Part shown: positions 753-35,571 of the stretch, piece by piece
Position numbering within the stretch: position 1 is the first letter of the stretch
Layout of the letters: each line of letters opens with the position of its first letter
Assembly: GCA_913055655.1 (NCBI GenBank)
Contig: CAJXKA010000001.1
Location: 680,842-744,841 of the forward strand
Reading direction: 5' to 3'
Length of the DNA stretch: 64,000 bases
DNA from: an uncultured Oceanospirillales bacterium
GTDB taxonomy: Bacteria > Pseudomonadota > Gammaproteobacteria > Xanthomonadales > SZUA-36
The notes under the pieces: model-generated
Database searches by the model: none
What the model saw: only the letters and a program-made list of their open reading frames with translations
What the model was told of the DNA's origin: nothing
Position numbers and translations under genes: made by a program

Positions 753-1127
753 TCAGGACCTGGGCCGATAGTTCACACCGGCCAGTCCTTCGAAATCGCT
801 GTCCTGGGTCCACAGTGTCGCGTTCCACGCCTGGGCAGTGGCGAAGATGATGCTGTCGGCCAGTGGCAACTTATGTCGTAATCCAAAATCCGCGGCGCTG
901 ATCGCCAGGTTGGCATCCAGGTCCACCACCTGCGCGTTGCGCATATAGGCTGAAACTTTCAGCGCCTCATGCTCCGAAACTTCGCGCGAGAGGTGCTTGA
1001 AGACTTCCGTGATCGTGACCGTGGGCACCACGAGCTGGTCAACGGCCTCCAGGGCCGGGGCGAACCAGTCCGCGTTCGGCTCTTCGGCCAGGTAGGACAG
1101 CCAACCGGAGGAGTCCACGACGTTCAC
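753..1127 (-). CDS. vapC: PIN-domain ribonuclease toxin VapC
   Basis: GTG start. Begins VNVVDSSGWLSYLAEEPNADWF and ends in DSIIFATA...TQDSDF, typical PIN acidic residues. 4-nt overlap (GTGA) with the upstream antitoxin. Confidence 0.85.
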   Translation of the reverse strand: MNVVDSSGWLSYLAEEPNADWFAPALEAVDQLVVPTVTITEVFKHLSREVSEHEALKVSAYMRNAQVVDLDANLAISAADFGLRHKLPLADSIIFATAQAWNATLWTQDSDFEGLAGVNYRPRS

Positions 1128-1330
1128 AGCCGGTCCGGGTCTCGTTCGATGTGCGTGTCGATGCCCTCGTAACGACCGCGCATCTCGCGGATCGATCGTA
1201 TGGGCACCAGCTCGATCCGGCCCTTGTAGGCCAGCACCTGGATTTTCTCGCCGGGTTCGAGGTTCAGCGACTCCCGGACATCTTTGGGAATGACGACCTG
1301 GAATTTGGGTGAGAGGGTGACGGTTGTCAT
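1124..1330 (-). CDS. vapB: AbrB/MazE/SpoVT-type antitoxin (VapB)
   Basis: 68 aa: MTTVTLSPKFQVVIPKDVRESLNLEPGEKIQVLAYKGRIELVP. SpoVT-AbrB fold signature; overlaps the vapC start. Confidence 0.8.
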   Translation of the reverse strand: MTTVTLSPKFQVVIPKDVRESLNLEPGEKIQVLAYKGRIELVPIRSIREMRGRYEGIDTHIERDPDRL

Positions 1331-1362
1331 ACGATATCTCCATCGATACAAAAATCGTATGA
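1327..1362. promoter_or_regulatory. Putative vapBC operator palindrome
   Basis: 9-bp inverted repeat TCATACGAT (1327-1335) / ATCGTATGA (1354-1362) with an inner ATCGAT. It spans the vapB start codon and leader. Confidence 0.35.
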
Positions 1363-1575
1363 CAAGTATAGCTGAGCAGACTGCCCGGTGAAGTCGGAAA
1401 TGTTCAGGGATTGTTGTAAGAGGGTGTCGCCTGGCGGCGCGATTGGCCTTGACCTTGATTTCCGCGCCAAGGCCCTGATATCTCCAACGCCAGGGTGACA
1501 AAATCCTGTAAAATACGTGGTTGGCGGTTCGTGCCGCCCGGCCCGGCCTGTTCCCCGAATTGAGTCAGCCAGCAA

Positions 1576-1662
<87 letters not shown>

Positions 1663-1701
1663 GTTTCTGAAGACCGGTTTTTCTAAAGGAAATACAAGTT
1701 C

Positions 1702-3012
1702 ATGCAAGTCACAGTTGAGAATCCGGGCGGCCTGCAGCGCCGCCTGACCGTGCAGGTTCCGGCCGGCGAAGTCCAGCAGCAGATCGACGCGCGCCTGCGC
1801 GAGATCGGCAAGACCGCACGCCTGAAAGGTTTCCGTCCCGGCCGCGTGCCGATGAAAGTGCTGCAGCAGCGCTTCGGCCCCTCGGTCCGCAACGAGATCG
1901 TCTCCAAGACGGTCGAGTCCAGCCTGGCCCAGGCCATTCGCCAGGAGTCGCTGAAGCCGGCGGCCAACCCGGTCATCGAATCCGTGCCGGAAGTGAAGGC
2001 CGACAAGGACTTCGAGTTCACGGCCACCATCGAGGTGATGCCGGAAATCGACAAGGTCGACACGGCCGCCATCGAGGTCAAGTCACCGGACGCGGAAATC
2101 ACCGAGGACGACATCGACGACATGCTGAACACGCTGTGTGAACAGCGCGCCACCTGGGAAGAGGCCAACCGCCAGCCCAAGGACGGCGACCAGGTGCTGA
2201 TCGAATACGCCGCCGACACCAAGGACGGCCGCGTGCCGGAAGAGGGCATGTCGCGCCTGGCGATCGTCATGGGCCAGTCCGGTTTCGACAAGCTGGAGAA
2301 AGTCCTGGCCGACCTGACCACCGGCGGCGTCACCGAGACCAAGCTGAAATTTCCCGACGATTTCCGCGAACAGGCCCTGGCCGGCAAGAAGGCGGACGTG
2401 TCACTGAAGATCGACAGTGTGCGTGAAAAGCACCTGCCGGAAATCGACGCCGAGTTCATCCAGTCCTTCGGTATCGAGAGTGGCGACATGGACGAGATGC
2501 GCAGCGAGGTTCGCAAGAACCTGGAGCGCGAGATGAAAGGCGCACGCCTGACGCTGTTGAAGACCCAGATCCTGAACGCGCTGCTGGCCAGCCATGAAGA
2601 CCTGGAAGTGCCCGAGGGCCTGGTCCGCCAGGAAGCGGCGCAGTTGCTGCAGACGCAGGCACGCCAGCGCGGCTTCGAGCCGGATCCGTCCATGCTGCCG
2701 CAGTTCAGCGACGTTGCCCGCAAGCGCGTCAAGAGCGGCCTGCTGATCAGCGAGATTGCCCGCCAGAACGACATCATCGTCGACGGCGCCAAGGTGCGCG
2801 AGGCAATCGAGTCGGTGGCCAGCACCTACGAGCAGTCGCGCGAAGTGGTGCAGATGTACTACAACAACCCCGAACTGTTGAACTCTGTCGAGGGTTCGGT
2901 ACTCGAAGAGCAGGTGGTTGACTGGGTGCTGGATCACGCTAAAGTGAACACCGAGGCGATGAGCTTCAAGGACCTGATTAACGCGGCCGCCCAATCGAGG
3001 CAGGGATTATGA
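1702..3012 (+). CDS. tig: Trigger factor
   Basis: 436 aa starting [21 protein letters not shown]... with ...GFRPGRVP; position upstream of clpP-clpX-lon. Confidence 0.97.
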
Positions 3013-3644
3013 GCAACGCCGGCGCGATGGATACGCGAGCACTGAACCTGGTGCCCATGGTGGTCGAACAGACCTCCCGGGGCGAGCGCGCGTACGATAT
3101 TTACTCGCGCCTGCTCAAAGAGCGTGTCATCTTCATCGTCGGCCCGATCGACGATCACACCGCCAACCTGGTGGTTGCGCAGCTGCTGTTCCTGGAGTCC
3201 GAGAACCCGGACAAGGACATCAATATCTACATCAACAGCCCGGGTGGCTCCGTCACCGCGGGCCTGGCCATTTACGACACCATGCAGTTCGTGAAGCCGG
3301 ACGTCTCCACCATGTGCGTGGGGCAGGCGGCTTCCATGGGCGCGGTGCTGCTGGCCGCGGGCGCGAAAGACAAGCGTTACGCACTGCCGCACTCGCGGGT
3401 GATGATTCACCAGCCGCTGGGCGGCTTCCAGGGCCAGGCCTCGGACATCGATATCCATGCCCGGGAAATCCTGAAAATCCGCGAGCAGCTGAACGAGCTG
3501 CTGGCCGGTCACACCGGACAGGACGTGGAAAAGATCGCGCGCGATACCGAACGTGATCATTTCATGGGTCCGGCCGAGGCGCAGGACTATGGCCTCGTCG
3601 ACCGTGTTCTTGACAGCCGTAGCGGCGACAAGGACAATGCCTGA
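3009..3644 (+). CDS. clpP: ATP-dependent Clp protease proteolytic subunit
   Basis: Contains [17 protein letters not shown], the catalytic context GQAASMGA, and HQPLGG. ATGA overlap with tig. Confidence 0.97.
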
Positions 3645-3682
3645 AAACATCGGATTTTCATTGACATACAGAACAAATCCAG

Positions 3683-4948
3683 ATGACTGATAAAGAACAG
3701 AATTCCACGGACGGCAAGATCCTCTACTGTTCGTTCTGCGGCAAGAGCCAGCACGAGGTCCGCAAGCTCATTGCGGGCCCCAGCGTGTATATCTGCGACG
3801 AGTGCGTCGAGCTCTGCAACGACATCATCCGCGAGGAGCTTGAGGACGCCGGCGTCGCCGATCGCGAATCGCTGCCCATTCCGAAGGAAATCCATTCCTT
3901 CCTGGACGAGTACGTCATTGGCCAGGAACAGGCCAAGAAGGTGCTGTCGGTGGCGGTGTACAACCACTACAAGCGCCTGGAGCCCGGTCGTCGCGAGGAA
4001 GAGGTGGAACTGGCCAAGAGCAACATCCTGCTCATCGGCCCCACCGGTTCCGGCAAGACGCTGCTGGCGGAAACGCTGGCGCGCATGCTCAACGTGCCGT
4101 TCACCATCGCCGACGCGACCACGCTCACCGAAGCGGGCTACGTTGGCGAAGATGTCGAGAACATCATCCAGAAGCTGCTGCAGAAGTGCGACTACGACGT
4201 CGAGAAAGCCCAGACGGGCATCGTCTACATCGACGAAATCGACAAGGTCTCACGCAAGGCCGAAAACCCGTCCATCACCCGCGACGTGTCGGGCGAGGGC
4301 GTGCAACAGGCGCTGCTGAAACTGATCGAGGGCACCATCGCCTCGGTGCCGCCCCAGGGCGGCCGCAAGCACCCGCAGCAGGAATTCCTGCAGGTCGACA
4401 CCTCGCAGATCTTGTTTATCTGTGGCGGCGCCTTCGCCGGCCTGGAAAAAGTCATCCAGGACCGCTCCACCAAGTCCGGCATCGGCTTCTCCGCCGAGGT
4501 CAAATCGAAAGAAGCCCGCGTCGACATCGGCGAAGTGCTGGCCGAGGTCGAACCCGAGGACCTGGTCAAGTACGGCCTGATCCCCGAATTCGTCGGCCGC
4601 CTGCCGGTGGTCGCCACCCTGCGCGAGCTCGACGAGCACGCCCTGGTGCGCATCCTCACCGAACCCAGGAACGCCCTGGTCAAGCAGTACCAGCAACTGT
4701 TCGACATGGAAGGCTGCGAACTCGACATCCGCGACGACGCCCTGCACGCCATCGCCCGCAAGGCCATGGCCCGCCGCACCGGCGCCCGCGGCCTGCGCAC
4801 CATTCTCGAATCCGTGCTGCTCGAATCGATGTACGAATTGCCGTCCATGGAAAATGTCTCGAAAGTCGTTGTCGACGAGACGGTCATTGAAGGCGATGCG
4901 GAGCCTTTGATGCTGTATGAGAATGCGCAGCAGGCTGCCGACGGTTAA
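3683..4948 (+). CDS. clpX: ATP-dependent Clp protease ATP-binding subunit ClpX
   Basis: N-terminal zinc finger CSFCGKSQ...CDEC; Walker A GPTGSGKT; 421 aa. Confidence 0.98.
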
Positions 4949-5651: not shown

Positions 5652-8063
<2,412 letters not shown>

Positions 8064-8073
8064 GTTTCGGGGC

Positions 8074-8153
8074 GCTTTCCGGCGACTTATCAAGCAAAAG
8101 AATCGCTTGGGGAGGCAAGCTAATCCAATACCTCCCCAAGCGCGCCGGAAAGC
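8074..8153 (+). other. Nested (compound) hairpin downstream of lon
   Basis: Outer stem GCTTTCCGGCG 8074-8084 / CGCCGGAAAGC 8143-8153. Inner 10-bp stem CTTGGGGAGG 8106-8115 / CCTCCCCAAG 8131-8140. No T-run follows. Confidence 0.45.
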
Positions 8154-8339
8154 TGTTGCGCCGCCATCCAGCGGTGTATTAGTATCGTCCCACGCTCCGC
8201 AGGCCGCGACCTGCAAGGCGTTCCGGGGGATAGGGAAACCCGGGTACAGAGACCATAGTTGGTAGTAGCCGTTTGCCACCGCAGTCCGTACAAGCCCCTC
8301 TATTAGAAATTCACACACACTGATACATGGAGTGCAAAA

Positions 8340-8612
8340 ATGAACAAATCTGAATTGATCGACGCGATTGCCGAGTCCGCAGGCCTGACCAAGGCTGACG
8401 CTGGCAGCGCGCTGGACGCCACCGTGGGCGCGATCACCTCCGCGCTGCAGCGCGGTCAGTCTGTTTCCCTGGTGGGCTTCGGCACCTTCACCGTTCGCCA
8501 CCGCGCCGCCCGTACCGGCCGCAACCCGCGCACCGGTGAAAGCATCACGATCAAGGCTTCAAATAATCCTGCTTTCAAGGCTGGCAAAGCGCTCAAAGAC
8601 GCTGTAAACTAG
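8340..8612 (+). CDS. hupB: DNA-binding protein HU-beta
   Basis: 90 aa: [12 protein letters not shown]...[22 protein letters not shown]. Confidence 0.95.
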
Positions 8613-26347: not shown

Positions 26348-29347
26348 ATGAACTTCAATCGTCGCTTGTCGTGGTCCGTGCTCGCGCTGGCCGCATTCCT
26401 GTTCCTGCCCATGGCGGCCATGGCACAGGAAACCTCATCCGCGCTGCGCGTGGACACCTATTCCGGTGATGGATCAGTCGTTCCCGGCGTGTCCGTCACG
26501 GTTACCGATACCCGCACGGGTACATCACGCACCAGCAGCACCGGTAATTCCGGGTCGGTGACATTTTCGGGGTTACGCGTCGGTGGTCCTTACACCGTCG
26601 TTGCAGCCTCTGATGCCTACGGCAACCAGACGGTGACGGATGTCTTCCTGAGCCTGGGTGATACCTACAACCTGCCGCTCGCGCTGAGTTCAGTCACGAT
26701 GGAAGAAGTGATCGTGACGGCCGCGCAGGTGCAGACCGGGCAGATTGCCATGGGGCCAAACGCCAACTTCGGCCTGGAAACCCTCGAAACGGCGCCGGCG
26801 ATCAACCGCAACATCACGGACGTCATTCGCGCCGACCCGCGTATTTACGTGGATGAATCCCGCGGTGACATCAACGCGATCCAGTGCGGCGGCAAGAACT
26901 CCCGCTTCAACAGCCTGACCCTGGACGGCGTTCGCATGAACGACTCCTTCGGCCTGAACTCGAACGGTTACCCCACCGAGCGCATGCCGTTCTCCTACGA
27001 CGCCATCAACGAGGTGTCCGTGGAACTGGCGCCGTTCGACGTCATCTACGGTGGTTTCACCGCGTGTAACATCAACGCGGTCACCAAGACCGGTGGCAAC
27101 GAATTCTTCGGTGGTGGTTTCTACGACTACACCAACGACGACCTTCGCGGTGACAGCCTGGAAGGCGACAAGATTAATACCGGTAGCTACTCCGAATCTC
27201 GTTATGGCGTGACCTTCGGTGGCCCGATTATCCGGGACAACCTGTTCTTCTTCGCTGCCTACGAAAAGCTGGAAGGCGCCAACCTGTTCGACCGTGGCCC
27301 GCTGGGTTCCGGCGCGGTCAACGAGGTCGACCTTTCCCAGGCGGACCTGAACGAGATCGCCCAGATTGCCCGTGACCTGTACGGCTACGATCCGGGCCCG
27401 GTTCCGCAGAGCCTGGACAATGAAGACGAGAAAATCCTGGTCAGGCTGGACTGGTTCATCAACGACTTCCACAACATCGCGTTCACGTACAACTGGAACG
27501 ACGGTAACAACTACACGGAATCGGATGGCGACATCAACGAGTTTGAGTTCCTGAACCACCTCTACGAGCGTGGCGCGGAACTGACGTCCTACGTCGGCTC
27601 GCTGAATTCACACTGGACCGACAACTTTTCCACCGAGTTCCGCCTGACCTACCAGGACCTGAAGAACCGCCAGATTTCCTACAACGGTACGGACTTCGGC
27701 GAAATCCGGGTCGAGACGCCCAACGTGGACGTCTACCTGGGTGCGGACGACAGCCGCCAGTCCAACGTCCTGAACTGGGACAGCGTCGGCCTGGTGCTGA
27801 AAGGCCATTACGAACTGGACAACCACTACCTGACGTTCGGTTACGAGCGCGAGGAACTGGATGTCTTCAACCTGTTCGTGCAGCACAGCGAGACCGAGAT
27901 CCGTTTCGACGGTATCGAGAACTTCCGCAACGGCTACGCTGACGCGATCTACTACAACAACGCACCGTCGAATAACCCCGAAGATGCCGCGGCCGACTGG
28001 GGGTATGAACTCAACACGATCTATGGCCAGGATGAGTTCACGATTGGTGACAGCATCACGGTCGTCGCCGGCCTGCGTTACGACTGGTACACGACCGGCA
28101 CCGCCCCGGTGGAGAACACCGACTTCACGGCGGAGTACGGGTTCCCGAACACCAACACGGTGGACGGCCTGGACCTGATCCAGCCCCGCCTGGGTGTGAC
28201 CTGGAACATTACCCCCGACACGACACTGACGGGTGGTATTGGCCTGTACTCGGGCGGCAACCCGAATGTCTGGCTGTCGAACAACTACTCGGCCAACAAC
28301 GTGCTGCAGTTCGGCCAGCGTGGCCGCTCCTTCGGCTACACCGACGGTTCGCGTTCGCTGTTTGATTCGGACATCGTCTGGCAGGCCTGCGAAAGCGGCG
28401 TGCCGACGGGTCCCGGCTACTGTATCCCGGGTGAGCTGTACGACGCGGTCGCCATGGGCGTGGGTGATAACTTCGAGATCAACTACCTGGATCCCGATTT
28501 CGAACTGCCGAGCGAATGGAAGTTCGCCCTGGGCCTGCAGCACTACTTCCTGGACGACTGGCTGTTCACGGCTGACTTCCTGTGGACCGAAGGCCAGGAT
28601 TCCGCGATGGTTCTGCACGGCGACCTGGAGCAGATCGGCACCAATCCCGACGGCTACCCCATTTACGACAGCGTCAGGGAGCCAAGTTTCGTGCTGACCA
28701 ACAGCGACGTGGGCAACCGCTCGAAGCTGCTGTCATTCGGTATTTACAAGGAGTGGATGAACGGCATCGACATGTCGGCCGGCTATTCCTACAGCGATGC
28801 TGAAGACGTGCAGCCAATGACCAGCTCGGTGGCGTTCTCCAACTACACCAGCCGTGCATTCTTCGATCCGGAAGAAGATGTTCGTTCGACCTCGAACTAC
28901 AACATCCGTCACCGCTTTACGCTGACCAGCAACTGGCGGAAGATGTGGGGCGACAGCATCGATTCGGTCGTGTCCCTGTACGGTTCTGCCAACGAAGGCC
29001 GCCCGTTCAGCTACACCTACGACGGCACCATCGACCCGTACAACTTCACGCCTTACCTGGACTTCCTGCCGATCGTGCTGGAGCCGGGTGACGAACGTAA
29101 CGGCGAGTACGGTTCATGGTGGAGCAAGCTCGACATGCGTGTTGAGGTCGGCTTCCCGGTGTTTGGCGGTACCCGCCGCGCATCGGTCTTCATGCTGATC
29201 GACAACCTGACGAACCTGCTGAACGACGACTGGGGTGTGCTGAAACAGCACAACTTCCCGCGTACCGTTGAGCGCGGCACCGAAGAAGCCCGGATTGGTG
29301 ACGCTTCGCGTTACGAGATTCGCTTCGGCGCCAAGTTCGAGTTCTAA
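26348..29347 (+). CDS. TonB-dependent receptor with N-terminal carboxypeptidase-regulatory-like domain (Oar-like)
   Basis: Signal peptide MNFNRRLSWSVLALAAFLFLPMAAMA. CarboxypepD_reg-like segment, plug and barrel. Terminal ...RFGAKFEF (C-terminal Phe). Confidence 0.9.
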   Translation: MNFNRRLSWSVLALAAFLFLPMAAMAQETSSALRVDTYSGDGSVVPGVSVTVTDTRTGTSRTSSTGNSGSVTFSGLRVGGPYTVVAASDAYGNQTVTDVFLSLGDTYNLPLALSSVTMEEVIVTAAQVQTGQIAMGPNANFGLETLETAPAINRNITDVIRADPRIYVDESRGDINAIQCGGKNSRFNSLTLDGVRMNDSFGLNSNGYPTERMPFSYDAINEVSVELAPFDVIYGGFTACNINAVTKTGGNEFFGGGFYDYTNDDLRGDSLEGDKINTGSYSESRYGVTFGGPIIRDNLFFFAAYEKLEGANLFDRGPLGSGAVNEVDLSQADLNEIAQIARDLYGYDPGPVPQSLDNEDEKILVRLDWFINDFHNIAFTYNWNDGNNYTESDGDINEFEFLNHLYERGAELTSYVGSLNSHWTDNFSTEFRLTYQDLKNRQISYNGTDFGEIRVETPNVDVYLGADDSRQSNVLNWDSVGLVLKGHYELDNHYLTFGYEREELDVFNLFVQHSETEIRFDGIENFRNGYADAIYYNNAPSNNPEDAAADWGYELNTIYGQDEFTIGDSITVVAGLRYDWYTTGTAPVENTDFTAEYGFPNTNTVDGLDLIQPRLGVTWNITPDTTLTGGIGLYSGGNPNVWLSNNYSANNVLQFGQRGRSFGYTDGSRSLFDSDIVWQACESGVPTGPGYCIPGELYDAVAMGVGDNFEINYLDPDFELPSEWKFALGLQHYFLDDWLFTADFLWTEGQDSAMVLHGDLEQIGTNPDGYPIYDSVREPSFVLTNSDVGNRSKLLSFGIYKEWMNGIDMSAGYSYSDAEDVQPMTSSVAFSNYTSRAFFDPEEDVRSTSNYNIRHRFTLTSNWRKMWGDSIDSVVSLYGSANEGRPFSYTYDGTIDPYNFTPYLDFLPIVLEPGDERNGEYGSWWSKLDMRVEVGFPVFGGTRRASVFMLIDNLTNLLNDDWGVLKQHNFPRTVERGTEEARIGDASRYEIRFGAKFEF

Positions 29348-29376
29348 GAAACGCGAAAAACTGGCGTGACAATGGA

Positions 29377-29406
29377 GGGGTCGGCTTCTGCCGGCCCCTT
29401 TTTTTG
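29377..29406 (+). terminator. Rho-independent terminator of the receptor gene
   Basis: GGGGTCGGC-TTCT-GCCGGCCCC followed by TTTTTTT. Confidence 0.65.
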
Positions 29407-29467
29407 TCGTTAGAATGGGCGGCATCAGAATTTGAAGAAATGACACAAAAAGTACCTGGAGAATCAC

Positions 29468-30844
29468 TTGGCCTCAGATGTTGTTAACGCCCGGCTTTAC
29501 CCGGCGGGCATGCTTACTTCCTTATCCCGCAGCGAAGTCGAACGGCTGCATGACGCCAGCCACGGCGAGCTCTATGAGCTGCTCCGCCGCTGCTCGCTGG
29601 CCGTGCTCAACAGCGGCAACGAGTCCGATGACGCCGAGGCGCTGCTGGCCGAGTTCAAAGACTTCGATATCACCGTGGAACAGTTCAACCGCGGTATCCG
29701 CCTGGAACTGTGCAACGCGCCGGGCATTGCCTTTGTCGATGGCAAGATCATCGAGGGCGTGCGTGAGCTGCTGTCCGCGGTCATCCGCGATCTCGTCTAT
29801 TACGACACCGAGATCGGCAGTAACCCGGCCTACAGGATGGACACCGGCGAGCAGATCACCAACGCGGTGTTCGAGATCCTGCGCAACGCCAACATCATCC
29901 AGCCGCGCGTCGAGCCGCACCTGGTGGTGTGCTGGGGCGGGCACTCCATCAGCCGCGCCGAGTACGAGTACACCAAGCTGGTGGGCTACGAACTGGGCCT
30001 GCGCAAGCTGAATGTCTGCACGGGCTGTGGCCCGGGCGCCATGAAGGGCCCGATGAAGGGCGCCACCATCGGTCACTCCAAGCAGCGGGTGAAGAACGGC
30101 CGCTACATCGGCGTGACCGAGCCCGGCATTATTGCCGCCGAGTCGCCAAACCCCATCGTCAACGAACTGGTCATTCTGCCGGACATCGAAAAGCGCCTGG
30201 AGGCCTTCGTGCGCCTGGGCCACGGCATCGTGGTGTTCCCCGGCGGCGCGGGCACCGCGGAGGAAATCCTCTACCTGCTGGGCATCCTGTTGCACCCGAA
30301 GAACGCCGACCTGCCGTTCCCGGTGGTGTTCACCGGCCCCGCCGGCTCCGCCGCCTATTTTGAGCAGATCGACAAGTTCATTCGCTTGACCCTGGGCGAC
30401 GAAGCGGCCGCGCGCTACCAGGTCATCATCGACGACCCGGTGGCCGTGGCGCAGACCATGCAGGCCGGCCTGGCGGAAGTCGGCGAATTCCGCAGCGAGG
30501 TCAAGGACGCCTGGTACTACAACTGGCGCCTGCAGATCGACGAGGACTTCCAGCGCCCCTTCGAACCCACCCACGCCGCCATGGCCGGCCTGGAGATCCA
30601 CCGCGACCTGCCGGTGCACGAGCTCGCCGCCAACCTGCGCCGCGCCTTCTCCGGCATCGTCGCCGGCAACGTCAAGCCGAACACGCTGGCCGCCATCCGC
30701 GCCGGCGGCAAGTTCGAAATCAGCGGCGAGAAGGCGATCATGGACAAGCTGGACGGGCTGCTTTCAGAGTTTGTGGCGCAGCACCGGATGAAGCTGCCCG
30801 GGGTGGCTTATGAGCCTTGTTACCGGGTTGTGAGTGGGGAGTAG
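29468..30844 (+). CDS. ppnN: Pyrimidine/purine nucleotide 5'-monophosphate nucleosidase PpnN (LOG family, YgdH)
   Basis: 458 aa; TTG start. The N-terminus aligns from memory with E. coli PpnN (CSLAVLNSG...). LOG motif PGGAGTAEE. Confidence 0.88.
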   Translation: MASDVVNARLYPAGMLTSLSRSEVERLHDASHGELYELLRRCSLAVLNSGNESDDAEALLAEFKDFDITVEQFNRGIRLELCNAPGIAFVDGKIIEGVRELLSAVIRDLVYYDTEIGSNPAYRMDTGEQITNAVFEILRNANIIQPRVEPHLVVCWGGHSISRAEYEYTKLVGYELGLRKLNVCTGCGPGAMKGPMKGATIGHSKQRVKNGRYIGVTEPGIIAAESPNPIVNELVILPDIEKRLEAFVRLGHGIVVFPGGAGTAEEILYLLGILLHPKNADLPFPVVFTGPAGSAAYFEQIDKFIRLTLGDEAAARYQVIIDDPVAVAQTMQAGLAEVGEFRSEVKDAWYYNWRLQIDEDFQRPFEPTHAAMAGLEIHRDLPVHELAANLRRAFSGIVAGNVKPNTLAAIRAGGKFEISGEKAIMDKLDGLLSEFVAQHRMKLPGVAYEPCYRVVSGE

Positions 30845-30891
30845 TGAGTGGTGAGTGGTAAGGGCGTTTGGGCTTGAGGCGCCAGGTGCGG

Positions 30892-31161
30892 TTATGCCGC
30901 GTCGTTTGAGGCGCGGCTTTTGATGGGATTATTGGCAGCTTCAGACTGGAGTCGTTCAACCAGCCAGACCTTGATGATGGACTGGCGGGTGACACCAACC
31001 CGAGCGGCTTCGCGGTCCAGCGATTCGACTACCCAGACCGGAAAGTCGACGTTGATACGTTTTTGCTTTTGATTGACACGGTTCGCCGAGGACAGATCAA
31101 GGTCATCAATGATGTCTTCCTTACCGTCGTCAAATTTACTGTCAAACTCGCTGGCTTTCAT
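30892..31161 (-). CDS. brnA: BrnA / CopG-family antitoxin
   Basis: 89 aa: ...KRINVDFPVWVVESLDREAARVGVTRQSIIKVWLVERL, the ribbon-helix-helix C-terminus typical of BrnA. Confidence 0.8.
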   Translation of the reverse strand: MKASEFDSKFDDGKEDIIDDLDLSSANRVNQKQKRINVDFPVWVVESLDREAARVGVTRQSIIKVWLVERLQSEAANNPIKSRASNDAA

Positions 31162-31420
31162 ACAAATTAATCTCCGCTTTTCGGGACCTCCTGACTGATA
31201 TCAGGCGGATCCTTGGATTTCTATAGGTCACAACAGCCGACCAGTGTCTGGTACCTATTCGACCAATCATCAGGAACCGTTCTTCATCTTCGGACTTTGC
31301 CCCGAGCTGAAGCAGGTCTGGATCTTTCCAAAGTGCCTGGGCGTCATGAAAATCTATCCCATGTTTTTCCAGGTTGGTACCGCTCTTCCGTTTATCGAAC
31401 TCAAACGCAAGCGTGAGTAT
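31142..31420 (-). CDS. brnT: BrnT-family ribonuclease toxin (no canonical start codon; ATA with a good SD is proposed)
   Basis: Hand translation of the minus strand: (I)LTLAFEFDKRKSGTNLEKHGIDFHDAQALWKDPDLLQLGAKSEDEERFLMIGRIGTRHWSAVVTYRNPRIRLISVRRSRKAEINLYESQRV*. The in-frame TAA at 31424-31426 closes the frame upstream. Overlaps the brnA start by 20 nt. Absent from the ORF track. Confidence 0.6.
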   Translation of the reverse strand: MLTLAFEFDKRKSGTNLEKHGIDFHDAQALWKDPDLLQLGAKSEDEERFLMIGRIGTRHWSAVVTYRNPRIRLISVRRSRKAEINLYESQRV

Positions 31421-31491
31421 AAATTATTCCTTTTCTACTCGCCCTGCAAGACTAAGCCTTCCCTCGGCAACAATCTGGTTGCGTCCGCAAC

Positions 31492-31932
31492 CTATGCCTC
31501 TGAAAGCACCGTTCTGGCAGCATTGCCCAATTGCTGGTCGAACGTGGCCAATGGGGCGCGGAGCTTCGTGGCGAGCAGCAGGTAGGCGGCATCGTAAGCG
31601 CTGAGATTCATGCGCCTGGCGAGGTCATACTGGGCGGCGCTGTCGACGGCGCAGCGGGTCAGGCGAAGGTCGGAAAGGTCCTGCAGGGCGCGCTTTGCAG
31701 CTTTTTCCAGTCCCGCTTTGGACTTCTTCAGCGCCACGCTGACCATTTCGTGGTCCAGCAGGTCGGGTGCGAACAGTTCCTTGCCCGCCATGGCCACGAG
31801 CGCGGTTTCCCTTTCCGGTTCGTCAAACAGCACGGCTGCCAGCACGCTGCAATCGATGACCAGCGGCGGATAGCGGGTGTATTTTCCCGCAGGTTCCGCG
31901 ATGTACAGCGACGACGCGCCTTCAGCGCGCAT
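31492..31932 (-). CDS. vapC: PIN-domain toxin (VapC/FitB-like)
   Basis: 146 aa: ...PPLVIDCSVLAAVLFDEPE...FAPDLLDHEM...LSAYDAAYLLLA...LATFDQQL. Acidic PIN residues are present. Overlaps the end of the upstream antitoxin. Confidence 0.8.
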   Translation of the reverse strand: MRAEGASSLYIAEPAGKYTRYPPLVIDCSVLAAVLFDEPERETALVAMAGKELFAPDLLDHEMVSVALKKSKAGLEKAAKRALQDLSDLRLTRCAVDSAAQYDLARRMNLSAYDAAYLLLATKLRAPLATFDQQLGNAARTVLSEA

Positions 31933-32206
31933 CGCGGTCCTGCCGAATCAGCTCGGTTGAGCGCGGCCCCTTACGGTAGGGGCGCTTCTTCTGTTGACGG
32001 TGCTCCTGGGCAATCTGCTCAATGGATTTGTAACCGCTTCGGGCGCGCTGGCCGGTTTCCGCGTCGGCAATGGAAACCGGCTGGGAGGCAACCTGGGTCA
32101 CCAATGCCAGCAGTTCACCCTGCAACGAGCGGTGATTGGCGGCCGCACGTTCGCGCAAACCGACGATCACGTCAGCTGGAACATTTTTGATGGAGAGGCT
32201 AGGCAT
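31922..32206 (-). CDS. Ribbon-helix-helix antitoxin (FitA/Arc-like)
   Basis: 94 aa: MPSLSIKNVPADVIVGLRERAAANHRSLQGELLALV... Only the last 94 codons of the 245-aa ORF in the track are used. Confidence 0.75.
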   Translation of the reverse strand: MPSLSIKNVPADVIVGLRERAAANHRSLQGELLALVTQVASQPVSIADAETGQRARSGYKSIEQIAQEHRQQKKRPYRKGPRSTELIRQDRDAR

Positions 32207-32283
32207 TGTCGGCAGATATGGAGTCAATATGACGCCATAGTGGAACCATTTGGTACGGCTGTCAAACATGATGGCGCTTAGCC

Positions 32284-33387
32284 GTGGTCGCCAACCTGAC
32301 CTACGACTTCCAGGGCAACCTGGCCAGCAAGGGCCCGTCCGGCGCGGTGCAGAACTACACCTTCGACCTGGGCAACCGCCTGCGCAGCGTGCCGAACAAG
32401 GAAACCGGCTACGAGTACGACGGCCACGGCCGCCGCGTGTACGCCAACACCGTGGGCAGTGGCCACATCCTGTCGCAGTACGCCATCGACGGGAAGCTGC
32501 TTTACCAGGAAAACCACAAGCTGGGCAAACGCATCGACTACATCTACCTGGGCACCCGCCTGGTGGCCCAGCGCGAGCGCCCGCTCGCAAGCAGCACCGC
32601 CACGCTGAAATACCAGCACACCGACGCCCTGGGCTCGCCGCTGGCGGTGACCAACCCATCGAAGGTCACCATCGAGACCAGCGAATACGAGCCCTACGGC
32701 CAACTGGTCAACAAACCCCTGTTCGACGGCCCGGGGTACACCGGCCACGCGCAGGACGCCGCGACCGGCCTGACGTACATGCAACAGCGGTACTACGACC
32801 CGCAGATTGGGCGGTTCCTGTCGGTGGACCCGGTGACGGCGTATACGAACCCGGGGCGGAACTTCAATCGGTATTGGTATGCAAATGACAATCCTTACAG
32901 GTTCAACGATCCCGACGGACGAATCGCGAACTTTGTCGTCAAGGGGGTGATCGACTTTGCGCTAGAGGTTGGCATTCAATATGCGACTACCGGGACCGTG
33001 GATATCGGTGATGCACTCCTCGAAACTGGTAAGGGGATGCTTAACCCGATGAAATCAATAGAGCGGGCAGGAGATCTTAGGAGAATTCTAAATTCTAGCG
33101 ACAAAGGGCTTCACCGGCCTTACATTCGTAGGAATGTAAGAGATGAAGTAAACAATCGAGCTCCTCGAAGCCCCGAAGGAAAACCACTTGACCCGAATAC
33201 TGGCAAACCCATAGAAGGCAAACCAGACTTGGGCCATAAACCCGGGCACGAATTTCGTACCGAAAAGATCAATGCTGAAGCTCAAGGCATGAACCAGAAA
33301 GACTTTAATAACAACATGAACAATCCTGACAAATATCAGTTGGAAGACCCCAGCTCAAACAGGAGTCATAGGTATGAAAAAAAGTAA
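32284..33387 (+). CDS. 5'-truncated Rhs-family protein: YD-repeat/RHS core end fused to a GH-E (HNH/EndoVII-type) nuclease toxin domain
   Basis: YD repeats (NLTYDFQGN, YTFDLGNR, YEYDGHGRR). RHS-associated core (YMQQRYYDPQIGRFLSVDP, NPYRFNDPDGR). C-terminus has DLGHKPGHEF...NNPDKYQLEDPSSNRSH. The frame opens only at 32272, after a TGA. Confidence 0.85.
   Translation: MVANLTYDFQGNLASKGPSGAVQNYTFDLGNRLRSVPNKETGYEYDGHGRRVYANTVGSGHILSQYAIDGKLLYQENHKLGKRIDYIYLGTRLVAQRERPLASSTATLKYQHTDALGSPLAVTNPSKVTIETSEYEPYGQLVNKPLFDGPGYTGHAQDAATGLTYMQQRYYDPQIGRFLSVDPVTAYTNPGRNFNRYWYANDNPYRFNDPDGRIANFVVKGVIDFALEVGIQYATTGTVDIGDALLETGKGMLNPMKSIERAGDLRRILNSSDKGLHRPYIRRNVRDEVNNRAPRSPEGKPLDPNTGKPIEGKPDLGHKPGHEFRTEKINAEAQGMNQKDFNNNMNNPDKYQLEDPSSNRSHRYEKK
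32484..32573 (+). repeat. Direct repeat DR1 (90 nt, within the rhs core)
   Basis: CATCGACGGGAAGCTGCT.TACCAGGAAAACCACAAGCTGGGCAAACGCATCGACTACATCTACCT.GGCACCCGCCTGGT.GCCCAGCG. 87/90 identical to 33867-33956. Confidence 0.95.
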
Positions 33388-33865
33388 CCCCAACGCGTTC
33401 ATACGAGCAGCAGTGGTCGGGAATCAAGAACAGATGAGGAGCCTTCTTGATGAAAACGCTGAGTACCTTTCATCCACTGATGCAGACGGAAGAAACGCTC
33501 TTATGCATGCTGTCCTGGGAGGGCATGGCGATGCAGTATGCTTTTTGCTCCAGTCTGGCTGTGACCCAGACGGGCGCGACCGTCTTGGTTACACCGCATT
33601 GCATTTTGCAGCGCAGGATTACTTATTGGATATGGTCGAATTGTTGTTGGAAAAAGGTGCGACTGTAGATGTTACTGATGAACATGGAAATACCCCGCTG
33701 TTCAAAGCAACTTTCTATTCCAGAGGCCGTGGTGAGGTAATCCGGTTGTTAATTAATGCTGGTGCTGACCAGCACCTTGAAAACCACTATGGTGTTTCCC
33801 CATTGGTGTTGGCCGAGTCGATTGCAAACTACTCGGTTCTCAAGTGGTTCAATGCGGCCACGTAA
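33374..33865 (+). CDS. Ankyrin-repeat protein, probable immunity protein for the Rhs C-terminal toxin
   Basis: 163 aa with about four ANK repeats (GRNALMHAV, GYTALHFAA, GNTPLFKAT, GVSPLVLA). Overlaps the toxin stop by 14 nt. Low GC, like the toxin tip. Confidence 0.8.
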   Translation: MKKSNPNAFIRAAVVGNQEQMRSLLDENAEYLSSTDADGRNALMHAVLGGHGDAVCFLLQSGCDPDGRDRLGYTALHFAAQDYLLDMVELLLEKGATVDVTDEHGNTPLFKATFYSRGRGEVIRLLINAGADQHLENHYGVSPLVLAESIANYSVLKWFNAAT

Positions 33866-33866
33866 T

Positions 33867-33956
33867 CATCGACGGGAAGCTGCTGTACCAGGAAAACCAC
33901 AAGCTGGGCAAACGCATCGACTACATCTACCTTGGCACCCGCCTGGTCGCCCAGCG
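33867..33956 (+). pseudogene. rhs core remnant, also direct repeat DR2
   Basis: About 30 codons (IIDGKLLYQENHKLGKRIDYIYLGTRLVAQR) duplicate residues 68-97 of the upstream Rhs fragment. Homology stops at 33956. Begins 2 nt after the ankyrin stop. Confidence 0.85.
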
Positions 33957-34000
33957 GCTGTCAAACAGGCCGCCGTTCGGCAAACCCAGTGTGTCAGGGG

Positions 34001-34705
34001 TTAATCCGCCGGGCGTAACAGCGAGCGGTCGCGGGTCAGGTTCTCTTCCCCCAGTAACGGCCGGATGTCGACCAGCGGGATGCCGTGGGTAAATCGGTAG
34101 CGGCCGTCTTCCTGTTGTTCCAGCCAGCCTCCTTCCAGCAGCGCGTCGCGCTCGGCGATGGCCAGCTCGTCGTCTTCGACGACGGCGTAGGGGTCGGCGA
34201 ACTGCATGGGGCGGGCGAGGGCGGCCAGGTCGTCGGTGAGTTCGATATCCGCGGGTGGGTAGCGCAGCGCATAGCCATTGCCGGCCGTGACCAGGATGTC
34301 CAGGGCGCAGCCGTGGGGCAGGCCGAGGAACTGGTCGGCGACGTCGGGGTTGTCACGGGCGAATAGCAGGTGGCGGCGGCCTTCTTCATCGACGTCGGGG
34401 TTCTGGAAGTAGCATTCGGCGGGGTGCAGGCCTTCGTCGTAGACGCGCACCAGGTCGCCGACGGGGTCGGTCACGCGCCAGCGGATCAGCACGCGCAGGA
34501 AGGCGGTGCCGCCGGTGGGGAAGCCGCGCGCATAGACATAGTCGGTGTCGGCCACCTGGACTACGGCGACCAGGTCGCTGTGGCTGGCCAGTTCGGCCAG
34601 GCTGGCGGGTGGCGGCGGCTCCTGCGCGTCGGTGGACTCGGTCTGTGCCGTGGCCGTGGTCGCAGCCAGGGCGGCCAGTAGCAGTGCCGTGATGTGTTGT
34701 TTCAT
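34001..34705 (-). CDS. Hypothetical secreted protein
   Basis: 234 aa; signal peptide MKQHITALLLAALAATTATA. ATGA overlap with the psd stop. No family recognised. Confidence 0.6.
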   Translation of the reverse strand: MKQHITALLLAALAATTATAQTESTDAQEPPPPASLAELASHSDLVAVVQVADTDYVYARGFPTGGTAFLRVLIRWRVTDPVGDLVRVYDEGLHPAECYFQNPDVDEEGRRHLLFARDNPDVADQFLGLPHGCALDILVTAGNGYALRYPPADIELTDDLAALARPMQFADPYAVVEDDELAIAERDALLEGGWLEQQEDGRYRFTHGIPLVDIRPLLGEENLTRDRSLLRPAD

Positions 34706-35571
34706 GACGGGCTGGCCATTGGCAGCGCCAGGCGCTGGCCCATCTTGACCGGGTCGCCGGTGCCAGGGCTCGCGACGGGCGTGACCTGGCCCGGCGGCAG
34801 CACCACGATCACAGTGCTGCCCATGTTGAAGCGGCCCATTTCCTCGCCCCTGGCCAGCGTGACTTCGCCGGGGGCGTAGTCGTGGCGGGCCAGGTCGCGC
34901 GGTTTTGCGGGCGTGATGGTGCCGGCCCAGGCGGTGTCCATGGACCCGACCAGCATGGCGCCGACCAGTACCACGGCCATCGGGCCGAGGTCCGTGTCGA
35001 AGATGCTGACCACGCGCTCGTTGCGGGCGAACAGGCCGGGGACCTGGCGCACGGTGGCGGGGGACACGCTGAACAGGCGGCCGGGCACGTAGGTCATGCG
35101 CTTGAGTTCGCCGGCCAGCGGCATGTGCACGCGGTGGTAATCGCGGGGCGACAGGTAGATGGTCCAGAACTCGCCGCCTTCCAGCGCACTCGTGGCCGGG
35201 TCGTTGGCCAGCAGGCGTGCCAGTGAAAAATCGTGGCCCTTGGCCTGGAAGATGGTGTCGCCGTTGATGGGCCCGGCGGCGCTGATGCGGCCGTCGCTGG
35301 GGCAGATCACGCTGCCTTCGGCGTCATCCAGCGGTCGGGCGCCGTCGACCAGGGTGCGGGTGAAGAAGTCGTTGAAGGTTTTGTAGTCACCGGGCTCGGG
35401 CCGTGAGGCCTCGGACCAGTCGACGCCAGCGCTGGCGGCGATGGTGCGGATCAGGGTGTTTTTCACCAACGGCGTTTCCACGCGCATCAGCCAGTGCACC
35501 AGCGCGGTCAGGCCGTGCTGGGGCAGGACGTGCTGGGGCGCGGTGAACACCCGGTCGAGCCAGTTTGACAT
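34702..35571 (-). CDS. psd: Phosphatidylserine decarboxylase proenzyme
   Basis: 289 aa; self-cleavage motif context FNMGSTVIV (G-S-T). Confidence 0.95.
   Translation of the reverse strand: MSNWLDRVFTAPQHVLPQHGLTALVHWLMRVETPLVKNTLIRTIAASAGVDWSEASRPEPGDYKTFNDFFTRTLVDGARPLDDAEGSVICPSDGRISAAGPINGDTIFQAKGHDFSLARLLANDPATSALEGGEFWTIYLSPRDYHRVHMPLAGELKRMTYVPGRLFSVSPATVRQVPGLFARNERVVSIFDTDLGPMAVVLVGAMLVGSMDTAWAGTITPAKPRDLARHDYAPGEVTLARGEEMGRFNMGSTVIVVLPPGQVTPVASPGTGDPVKMGQRLALPMASPS

Follow-up and report, generated by a model that had tools for sequence, protein, structure and literature searches.

We find that the rhs segment in the window (the whole 64-kb stretch of DNA that was analysed) is most probably a decaying rhs locus and not a free-standing orphan cassette, consisting of a gene that has been beheaded and of the stub of a displaced tip. 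It lies in a small island whose annotated genes are two TA pairs (brnTA and vapBC), the rhs remnant, and an ankyrin gene. The divergent TA pair that the initial annotation had placed upstream of the fragment is identified by Pfam as vapBC, with vapC, encoding a PIN toxin, at 31492-31932 and vapB, encoding a FitA-like RHH antitoxin, at 31922-32206, both on the reverse strand. A conserved chromosomal gene of 234 aa (34001-34705, reverse strand), which in a distant relative directly abuts ppnN, forms the right border of the island.

The rhs frame is open from 32272, just past an in-frame TGA at 32269-32271, and its first start codon is GTG 32284, giving an ORF of 367 aa (32284-33387, forward strand). 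This frame had been described as encoding about 210 core residues and a toxin, and the ORF and domain data agree, with a core remnant (32284-32922) that comprises the last ~213 core residues and ends in the core-end motif NDPDGR (aa 206-213 of the ORF). The N-terminal end of the ORF matches the YD-shell/RHS profile PF25023 over profile positions 725-891 of 909, below the gathering cut-off, and is what is kept of the YD-repeat shell. Past the core-end motif lies the variable C-terminal tip (32923-33387, forward strand), in which Pfam places a GH-E nuclease domain of the HNH/EndoVII fold (PF14410) at aa 298-365 (E = 2.9e-20, full profile covered). The GC content of the tip is 46-49%, compared to 64% for the window, its homology to two related lineages ceases near 32897-32918, and no match was found when its DNA was searched against plasmids and phages. 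The ankyrin-repeat gene that follows (33374-33865, forward strand; Ank_2, 2.8e-26) shares 14 nt with the end of the toxin ORF, and an AGGAG of its own precedes the ATG by 8 nt. Its position fits that of an immunity gene, and from the sequence we presume it to be the one cognate to the GH-E toxin.

Marinihelvus fidelis carries a full-length rhs of 1654 aa at exactly this position, adjoining the same vapBC pair and divergent from it, as the remnant is in the window. The gene order there (contig L089) is psd, the 234-aa gene, a 144-aa gene, a 175-aa gene, rhs, vapB, vapC, brnT, brnA, and ppnN. Window 29300-32284 aligns to positions 777-3766 of the reverse complement of this contig at 89.6% identity, and window 32282-32897, at the core end, aligns to positions 7838-8453 at 94%. 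Compared to M. fidelis, the window thus has a clean 5' deletion of about 4074 bp (~4.07 kb), comprising 236 nt upstream of rhs and codons 1-1279; CCG microhomology is found on both sides of the gap at the junction (32282-32284), and VVANLTYD, with which the window frame starts, begins at aa 1280 of the orthologue. At the level of sequence comparison, this shows that an ancestor of this Marinihelvus-like bacterium must have had a full-length rhs between vapB and the 234-aa gene, and that the ~4.07-kb deletion, with its 3 nt of CCG microhomology, must have removed the promoter region along with codons 1-1279 in the window's lineage. A full-length orthologue occupies the locus and the deletion junction can be placed, as would be expected of a 5'-truncated rhs pseudogene. 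Since the window differs from M. fidelis by a clean deletion, we no longer hold to the initial view of an isolated orphan array that is not the tail of a main rhs gene: a tail is what it is, beheaded. No N-terminal secretion or delivery region remains, the signal-peptide-like start having gone with the deleted codons. The earlier observation that the window has no N-terminal Rhs shell or secretion genes also holds, as tblastn found no other Rhs shell in the window and the large genes scanned were all housekeeping genes. That PAAR, VgrG, and T6SS genes are absent has no bearing on this, since the full-length orthologue begins with a Sec-type signal-peptide-like sequence and has no PAAR domain (by inspection).

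A second lineage (contigs L006-L010) carries the same locus with a separate break, which runs from window position 31778, inside vapC, to a core point 166 nt further 5' and spans about 4.4 kb. Judged by its breakpoints, this is an independent beheading of the same rhs gene, and the core fragment in this lineage is frameshifted. A protein considered as a longer Rhs (P0020; 363 aa, 97% identical over 146 aa) was rejected, as its N-terminal 204 aa are antisense vapC read-through. The initial annotation had suggested comparing strains for alternative toxin/immunity pairs between the repeats, and three related lineages do carry three different tips past the same core end, where homology between them ceases: GH-E/ankyrin in the window, an Ntox35-like tip with several immunity-like genes in the L006 lineage, and a different third tip in M. 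fidelis. Partial-core fragments of variable length, some cut at the 3' side, occur at 25 of 78 related Lysobacterales rhs loci.

The repeat search and blastn both recover the 90-nt core repeat reported earlier, with its 87/90 identity and its abrupt end of homology. There is one such direct repeat, on the forward strand, with copy 1 at 32484-32573, within the retained rhs core, and copy 2 at 33867-33956, 1383 nt away; a degenerate pattern for the encoded peptide matches these two copies only in the window (0 expected, 100 shuffles). Copy 2 starts one base past the ankyrin stop codon (33863-33865), and its homology to copy 1 ceases at 33956. The copies differ at 3 sites, all synonymous and all at third codon positions, as would be expected if both had diverged while coding. 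Neither M. fidelis nor the L006 lineage has a second core copy. We favor reading copy 2 as a stub, the remains of a core fragment that preceded a displaced older tip and was later severed on its 3' side by a right-hand deletion; that it is a former orphan is something we infer, since we found no relative with an un-truncated displaced tip.

Both the layout and the tip diversity fit the published model of C-terminal displacement at rhs loci (Jackson 2009, PMC2935791; Koskiniemi 2014, PMC3967940), and the core/toxin/immunity/core arrangement matches what had been taken from the start as the footprint of tips displaced or swapped by recombination in the core. Under this model, the low-GC GH-E nuclease/ankyrin tip would have been gained when a tip-carrying circle recombined with the conserved core, and the incumbent tip would have been shunted downstream behind a partial core starting at the equivalent of 32484, giving rise to the directly repeated core. 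Afterwards, a right-hand deletion would have removed the rest of the displaced module together with the ancestral 144-aa gene, sparing 90 nt of core; we propose this deletion since the 144-aa gene, common to M. fidelis and the L006 lineage, is missing from the window. The displacement, the 5' deletion, and the 3' deletion could have come in more than one order.

Since it is left with no signal peptide, shell, native promoter, or ribosome-binding site, the 367-aa ORF would not be exportable and is probably a relic. The 236-nt region upstream of the orthologue is deleted from the window, a consensus scan found no sigma-70-like promoter in 31900-34100 (weak or internal promoters could escape such a scan), and a consensus-based scan likewise found no Shine-Dalgarno sequence before GTG 32284. 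In Salmonella, internal promoters drive truncated Rhs tips (PMC7043789), and since our scans are consensus-based, the relic may not be silent. That the toxin and immunity ORFs are intact could mean either that the event is recent or that selection has kept them, and the ankyrin gene, with its own Shine-Dalgarno sequence, may still be functional as an orphan immunity gene. By analogy with the Salmonella tips, the truncated module might be kept as an internally expressed, TA-like addiction pair, a present function that would be compatible with a decaying locus and that we regard as unlikely. In its favor, neither ORF is disrupted and the GH-E profile is matched over its full length, the module has the TA pairs brnTA and vapBC as neighbors in a small island, and two lineages lost the 5' part of the gene and yet kept tip and immunity. 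On the other hand, the lack of a promoter-like site and of a Shine-Dalgarno sequence at the GTG, the frameshifted core fragment of the L006 lineage, and one contig (L005) without the entire tip/immunity block all speak against such retention.

The right junction holds a detail that simple displacement plus deletion does not predict. The 13-mer CGGCTGTCAAACA occurs at 32256-32268, as part of the native sequence upstream of vapB (in M. fidelis, CGACTGTCAATCA stands there), and again at 33955-33967, at the right-hand junction, both on the forward strand. The two copies are exact and link both junctions, with a chance expectation of about 1e-4, and neither related lineage has the second in its right flank; this second copy is possibly templated filler. 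A target-site duplication or att site was rejected, as native vapB-upstream sequence runs 13-16 nt past the left copy, and by inspection the 13-mer does not fit the integron core site GTTRRRY. No transposase or recombinase is found among the island's annotated genes (Pfam, ORFs), the repeat search reported no terminal inverted repeats at the borders of the 1.7-kb block, and the segment does not have the features of a transposon or site-specific insertion with target-site duplication. The 13-mer does lend something to a different origin for copy 2, as a by-product of one replication-based rearrangement in which serial template switches would have brought first 90 nt of core and next 11-13 nt from upstream of vapB to the right deletion junction. 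In favor of this are the exact duplication at 33955-33967 of native sequence 13 nt from the left deletion junction, the origin of both copied pieces within 1.7 kb, and the lack of a second core copy in either related lineage. However, the 3 synonymous third-position differences (chance roughly 0.04) point to coding constraint rather than the decay of a recent non-coding copy, and copy 2 begins exactly where the displacement model would place it, right past the immunity gene. We therefore judge template switching improbable and continue to read copy 2 as the stub of a displaced tip.

RecA-type recombination between the two 90-nt copies could also delete the 1383-bp tip/immunity block, or restore it, and contig L005 (1.28x coverage) is without the 1383 bp between the repeats. 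Its deletion-variant ORF is present on this one contig only, which may be a genuine deletion variant or else an assembly chimera. A bolder proposal, which we hold to be quite doubtful, is that the block (core from 32484, GH-E tip, and ankyrin gene) is a live cassette that can be excised and re-inserted via the 90-nt repeats, with L005 as the natural "empty" product, and that it is kept in a beheaded gene as a TA-like addiction module in a TA island. If true, the circular intermediate that the C-terminal displacement model postulates would have direct evidence from nature, and a dead core stub would still be able to serve as a landing pad.

It is very unlikely that the segment is instead a free-standing orphan toxin/immunity array with no history in a main rhs at this site, a mobilized or swapped cassette waiting for a full-length rhs at another place in the genome to recombine with. 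The 64-kb window holds no main rhs or secretion genes, and short stand-alone Rhs-GH-E and immunity pairs do exist in unrelated contigs (L091 and L093); but the M. fidelis orthologue sits at the identical position with flank homology right up to the break, the second lineage has a different break in the same gene, and in protein searches the deleted N-terminal part was more than 70% identical only to M. fidelis itself. Besides the query's own entry (P0001), the core exceeded 80% identity only to the L006-lineage fragment. This search with the fragment omitted the M. fidelis Rhs despite a core end that is 94% identical in DNA, so absences from its list are weak evidence. A back-translated 17-aa core pattern, which matches the window and 10 other loci, gave 0 matches in the metagenome contig collection, which therefore does not contain this organism; the best match in the genome contig collection was a Wenzhouxiangellaceae MAG (80%).

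The arrangement across window 30800-35000 is 100% identical in two JGI 3300001237 contigs (L001 and L003) and 99.9% identical in JGI 3300026980 (L004), where the sole differences are in vapB at 32098-32109; a shorter contig from JGI 3300000932 (L002) is 99.9% identical across 32538-34376. A broken ankyrin gene in L004, suggested by a 72-aa call in the gene table, was rejected, as the DNA there is identical. It is therefore extremely unlikely that the repeat is a collapsed or chimeric assembly, a concern raised at the outset: the same two-copy arrangement is found in contigs of three separate JGI samples, the 3 inter-copy differences show the copies to be distinct sequences, and the window itself gives the artefact no support, any doubt applying only to the low-coverage L005.

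As a decaying rhs locus, the segment resembles those described by Jackson 2009 (PMC2935791), such as Serratia marcescens SMA1610 with its displaced fragments SMA1612/1614/1616, in its high-GC core and low-GC exchangeable tip with an immunity gene, in a near-identical partial core of arbitrary length directly repeated downstream of the immunity gene, and in related strains with different tips at one locus. It has the partial core, core end, tip, and immunity gene of an orphan module in that scheme; it does not lie downstream of an intact rhs with repeated core, as the fragment sits in the main gene's position, and only the 90-nt stub at 33867-33956 lies downstream of a repeated core, relative to the retained one. 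Unlike those loci, this one lacks codons 1-1279 of the upstream "main" gene itself, and nothing but 90 nt of core is left of the displaced module, whose tip is gone; the orthologue, moreover, appears Sec-dependent and not hcp/vgrG-linked. As in the rhs-main/rhs-CT-orphan locus of Salmonella Typhimurium (Koskiniemi 2014, PMC3967940; Starsta 2020, PMC7043789), the tip/immunity block lies between direct core repeats, through which modules can be removed or fused by homologous recombination, and truncated Rhs tips can persist with immunity genes. On the other hand, the Salmonella repeat is 522 bp with 95% identity, compared to 90 bp and 97% here, Salmonella retains an intact main gene and T6SS, which the window locus does not, and internal promoters have been shown there experimentally, whereas our consensus scan detected none.

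N-terminally truncated Rhs "pseudogenes" have been catalogued in Snodgrassella, Xanthomonas, and Ralstonia (Steele 2017, PMC5727410; bioRxiv 10.1101/2025.05.08.652813), and the 367-aa product, with a core end and tip and no delivery domain, falls within the size class treated as pseudogenes in these surveys (360-799 aa). Unlike in the surveyed cases, a full-length orthologue allows the deletion here to be placed to the base, and the same gene carries an independent deletion in a second lineage. Tox-GH-E tips and ankyrin-repeat immunity proteins are both known from polymorphic toxin systems (Zhang 2012, PMC3482391), and as there, a GH-E domain of the HNH/EndoVII fold lies at the C-terminus of an RHS protein with an ankyrin protein encoded immediately downstream. 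That work lists Imm-ank with Tox-AHH, whereas here ankyrin follows GH-E and is its putative neutralizer. In the other organisms in which we found GH-E fragments, Imm33 comes next instead of ankyrin.

For annotation, we suggest that ORF 32284-33387 be flagged as an rhs pseudogene or fragment and not as an effector, and the ankyrin gene as a possible orphan immunity gene. The decay route is ordinary for rhs loci, and the case illustrates known models rather than altering them. Altogether, it offers a base-resolved example of rhs decay, in which one gene was beheaded twice, by independent deletions at microhomology in sister lineages, while tips turned over at a fixed core end and left a displaced-tip stub behind, in a marine gammaproteobacterial genus that has been little studied and whose Rhs appears to be Sec-dependent rather than T6SS-linked.

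The truncated rhs gene opens directly after an in-frame TGA (32269-32271) and has GTG 32284 as its first start, as the initial annotation had stated, and its ORF (32284-33387) encodes 367 aa. Pfam assigned a YD-shell/RHS tail to the N-terminal end of this product and a complete GH-E HNH/EndoVII nuclease domain to aa 298-365 (E = 2.9e-20), with the core-end motif NDPDGR at aa 206-213. An ankyrin-repeat protein ORF (33374-33865; Pfam) follows directly, while two adjacent type II TA pairs (30892-32206), vapB/vapC and then brnT/brnA by Pfam, lie upstream on the opposite strand. GC content is 46-49% in brnA/brnT, and the rhs tip and immunity gene stand at 46-49% compared with 64% for the window. 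We confirmed the 90-nt direct repeat at 32484-32573 (copy 1, inside the retained core) and 33867-33956 (copy 2, 3' of the ankyrin gene), which is 87/90 identical with a spacing of 1383 nt. A degenerate pattern for the repeat-encoded peptide matched twice in the 64 kb, at the two copies, where shuffled sequences give an expectation of 0. Consistent with the earlier statement that a Rhs shell is lacking elsewhere in the window, we found no Rhs-like sequence in the 64 kb outside the fragment and copy 2, and the large genes scanned elsewhere were housekeeping genes (tig, lon, ppiD, cysS, aroA, rpsA, and others).

An assembly artefact, a possibility raised in the initial annotation, is ruled out as the source of the repeat, since three JGI samples yielded contigs with the two-copy arrangement. 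Those from 3300001237 (L001/L003) are 100% and that from 3300026980 (L004) 99.9% identical to window 30800-35000, with the L004 differences confined to vapB, and a shorter contig from 3300000932 matches window 32538-34376 at 99.9%. At vapB 32098-32109, the 3300026980 population differs from the window by a -1/+1 indel pair and 3 substitutions in 12 nt; the indel pair is a compensated local frameshift that alters a few antitoxin residues. Separately, the long antisense or extended ORFs over vapBC and the rhs fragment, at 31531-32190 (+) and 31922-32659 (-), are high-GC artefacts, and a 363-aa "Rhs" in public gene calls (P0020) was rejected as such an ORF joined to the rhs core.

The fragment had been described as an isolated orphan array, but this description gives way to that of a beheaded main gene, as a full-length rhs is present at the same position in Marinihelvus fidelis. 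The M. fidelis locus (L089) reads psd, 234-aa gene, 144-aa gene, 175-aa gene, rhs (1654 aa; L089 11739-16703), vapB, vapC, brnT, brnA, and ppnN, and its 234-aa gene is 84% identical to the orthologue to the right of the window's fragment (34001-34705), so the full-length gene occupies the exact position of the fragment. In DNA alignments to the reverse complement (L089rc), window 29300-32284 corresponds to 777-3766 at 89.6% and window 32282-32897 to 7838-8453 at 94%, with CCG at both edges of the gap. The window therefore lacks ~4074 bp relative to M. fidelis, namely 236 nt upstream of rhs and codons 1-1279, and its frame opens with VVANLTYD, orthologue residue 1280. The deleted N-terminal part has widespread close relatives in Lysobacterales, in proteins of ~1600-1800 aa, of which only M. 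fidelis itself exceeded 70% identity in a protein search. A word-seeded protein search queried with the 367-aa fragment missed the M. fidelis Rhs (P0169), although P0169 was in the database and the core end shares 94% DNA identity, so negatives from this search are unreliable.

The M. fidelis Rhs begins with MRVFSRFVFSLCVLAVSFSLFAQEPP, which on inspection resembles a Sec signal peptide; a PAAR domain was not detected in the protein. Many of its Lysobacterales relatives (~1600-2000 aa) carry ChitinaseA_N or FN3 N-terminal domains (PF08329, PF00041). Together, these features suggest a Sec-dependent, T6SS-independent Rhs clade. The island flanked by ppnN and the 234-aa gene, consisting of brnA/brnT, vapC/vapB, and the rhs remnant, is found in M. 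fidelis but not in the more distant relative L090; since the 234-aa gene directly adjoins ppnN there, the island was evidently inserted within the Marinihelvus lineage.

Five Logan contigs (L006-L010), which share ~90-93% identity with the window, come from a third lineage in which this locus is broken elsewhere. In these contigs, vapC is cut at the equivalent of window 31778 and joined to the rhs core at a point 166 nt 5' of the window's own junction, and the retained core is frameshifted. At this locus (L006 5000-9470, also L007-L010), a single ~4.4-kb deletion took vapB and the 5' parts of vapC and rhs. Since neither truncation could have arisen from the other, both descend from a full-length rhs by independent beheadings.

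Homology among the three lineages stops at the core end (window ~32897-32918), beyond which the tips differ. The window carries the GH-E nuclease and ankyrin genes; M. fidelis, a C-terminal tip without family assignment plus 175-aa and 144-aa ORFs; and L006, a ~3.6-kb stretch directly after its frameshifted core that holds an Ntox35-like tip, a 129-aa ORF, a colicin-immunity-like gene (PF09204), and further small ORFs. In the C-terminal displacement model, a circle with partial core and tip recombines into the chromosomal core, and the incumbent tip comes to lie further downstream, after a partial core that begins at the circle's breakpoint (PMC2935791). Copy 2 begins one base past the ankyrin stop, in agreement with this prediction for a breakpoint at 32484, and the implied circle would measure 1383 bp. 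The placement of copy 2 and the differing tips thus support the recombination footprint proposed earlier. The 3 differences between the copies are all synonymous and at third codon positions (~4% by chance), which fits alleles that diverged while coding. Copy 2 ends after 90 nt, and the 144-aa gene at the island's right end, common to M. fidelis and L006, is absent from the window; a right-hand deletion would therefore have taken the remainder of the displaced module. Among 78 related Lysobacterales loci, 25 contain partial-core fragments, which vary widely in length and are in some cases 3'-cut. Such an architecture is normal for the clade. In seven Lysobacterales rhs loci (L025, L028, L032, L049, L067, L073, and L087), all downstream partial-core matches begin at query residue 168 (~QRYYDP...), which may mark a preferred breakpoint or merely the limit of detectable similarity.

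A 1197-nt contig (L005; ENA ERZ508520 NODE_18694, 1.28x coverage) reproduces window 32232-34811 except for the missing 1383 bp between the repeats. Its switch falls inside the 47 identical nt that separate the first two of the three differences between the copies, with no other differences, which is suggestive of a real deletion variant produced by recombination between the repeats. At ~1x coverage, a k-mer chimera would look the same, and the fusion ORF was found on this single contig.

The window contains exactly two copies of the 13-mer CGGCTGTCAAACA, at 32256-32268 and 33955-33967 (expected at both junctions by chance, ~1e-4). The left one belongs to the native vapB-upstream sequence, with 2 mismatches in its M. 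fidelis counterpart, and native sequence runs 13-16 nt further 3' to the deletion junction, which excludes a target-site duplication. The right one, at the boundary of copy 2 with the right flank, is missing in both related lineages; most economically, it may be templated filler that was taken from sequence 1.7 kb upstream as the right-hand junction formed, hinting at replication template switching. This exact filler would also favour an origin of copy 2 in that same event, which we nevertheless consider improbable, and displacement remains our preferred reading of copy 2.

The rhs fragment has no signal peptide, shell, native promoter region, or Shine-Dalgarno at GTG 32284, and no sigma-70 consensus site was found within 31900-34100. 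As judged from these sequences, export of the predicted 367-aa product is excluded; its expression is rated only as unlikely, given that truncated Rhs tips in Salmonella are expressed from internal promoters (PMC7043789). The ankyrin gene has AGGAG 8 nt 5' of its ATG and is a candidate orphan immunity gene. Two unrelated contigs (L091 8001-9278 and L093 25-1466) encode stand-alone Rhs-core-end plus GH-E proteins of 311 and 366 aa followed by Imm33, amid unrelated genes and with no full-length rhs nearby, whereas the GH-E partner in the window is the ankyrin protein. These pairs demonstrate that isolated truncated Rhs tip/immunity pairs recur in unrelated bacteria. The locus studied here is likely a beheaded main gene that retains the stub of a displaced tip, and as such represents a further example of an already known kind of rhs locus.
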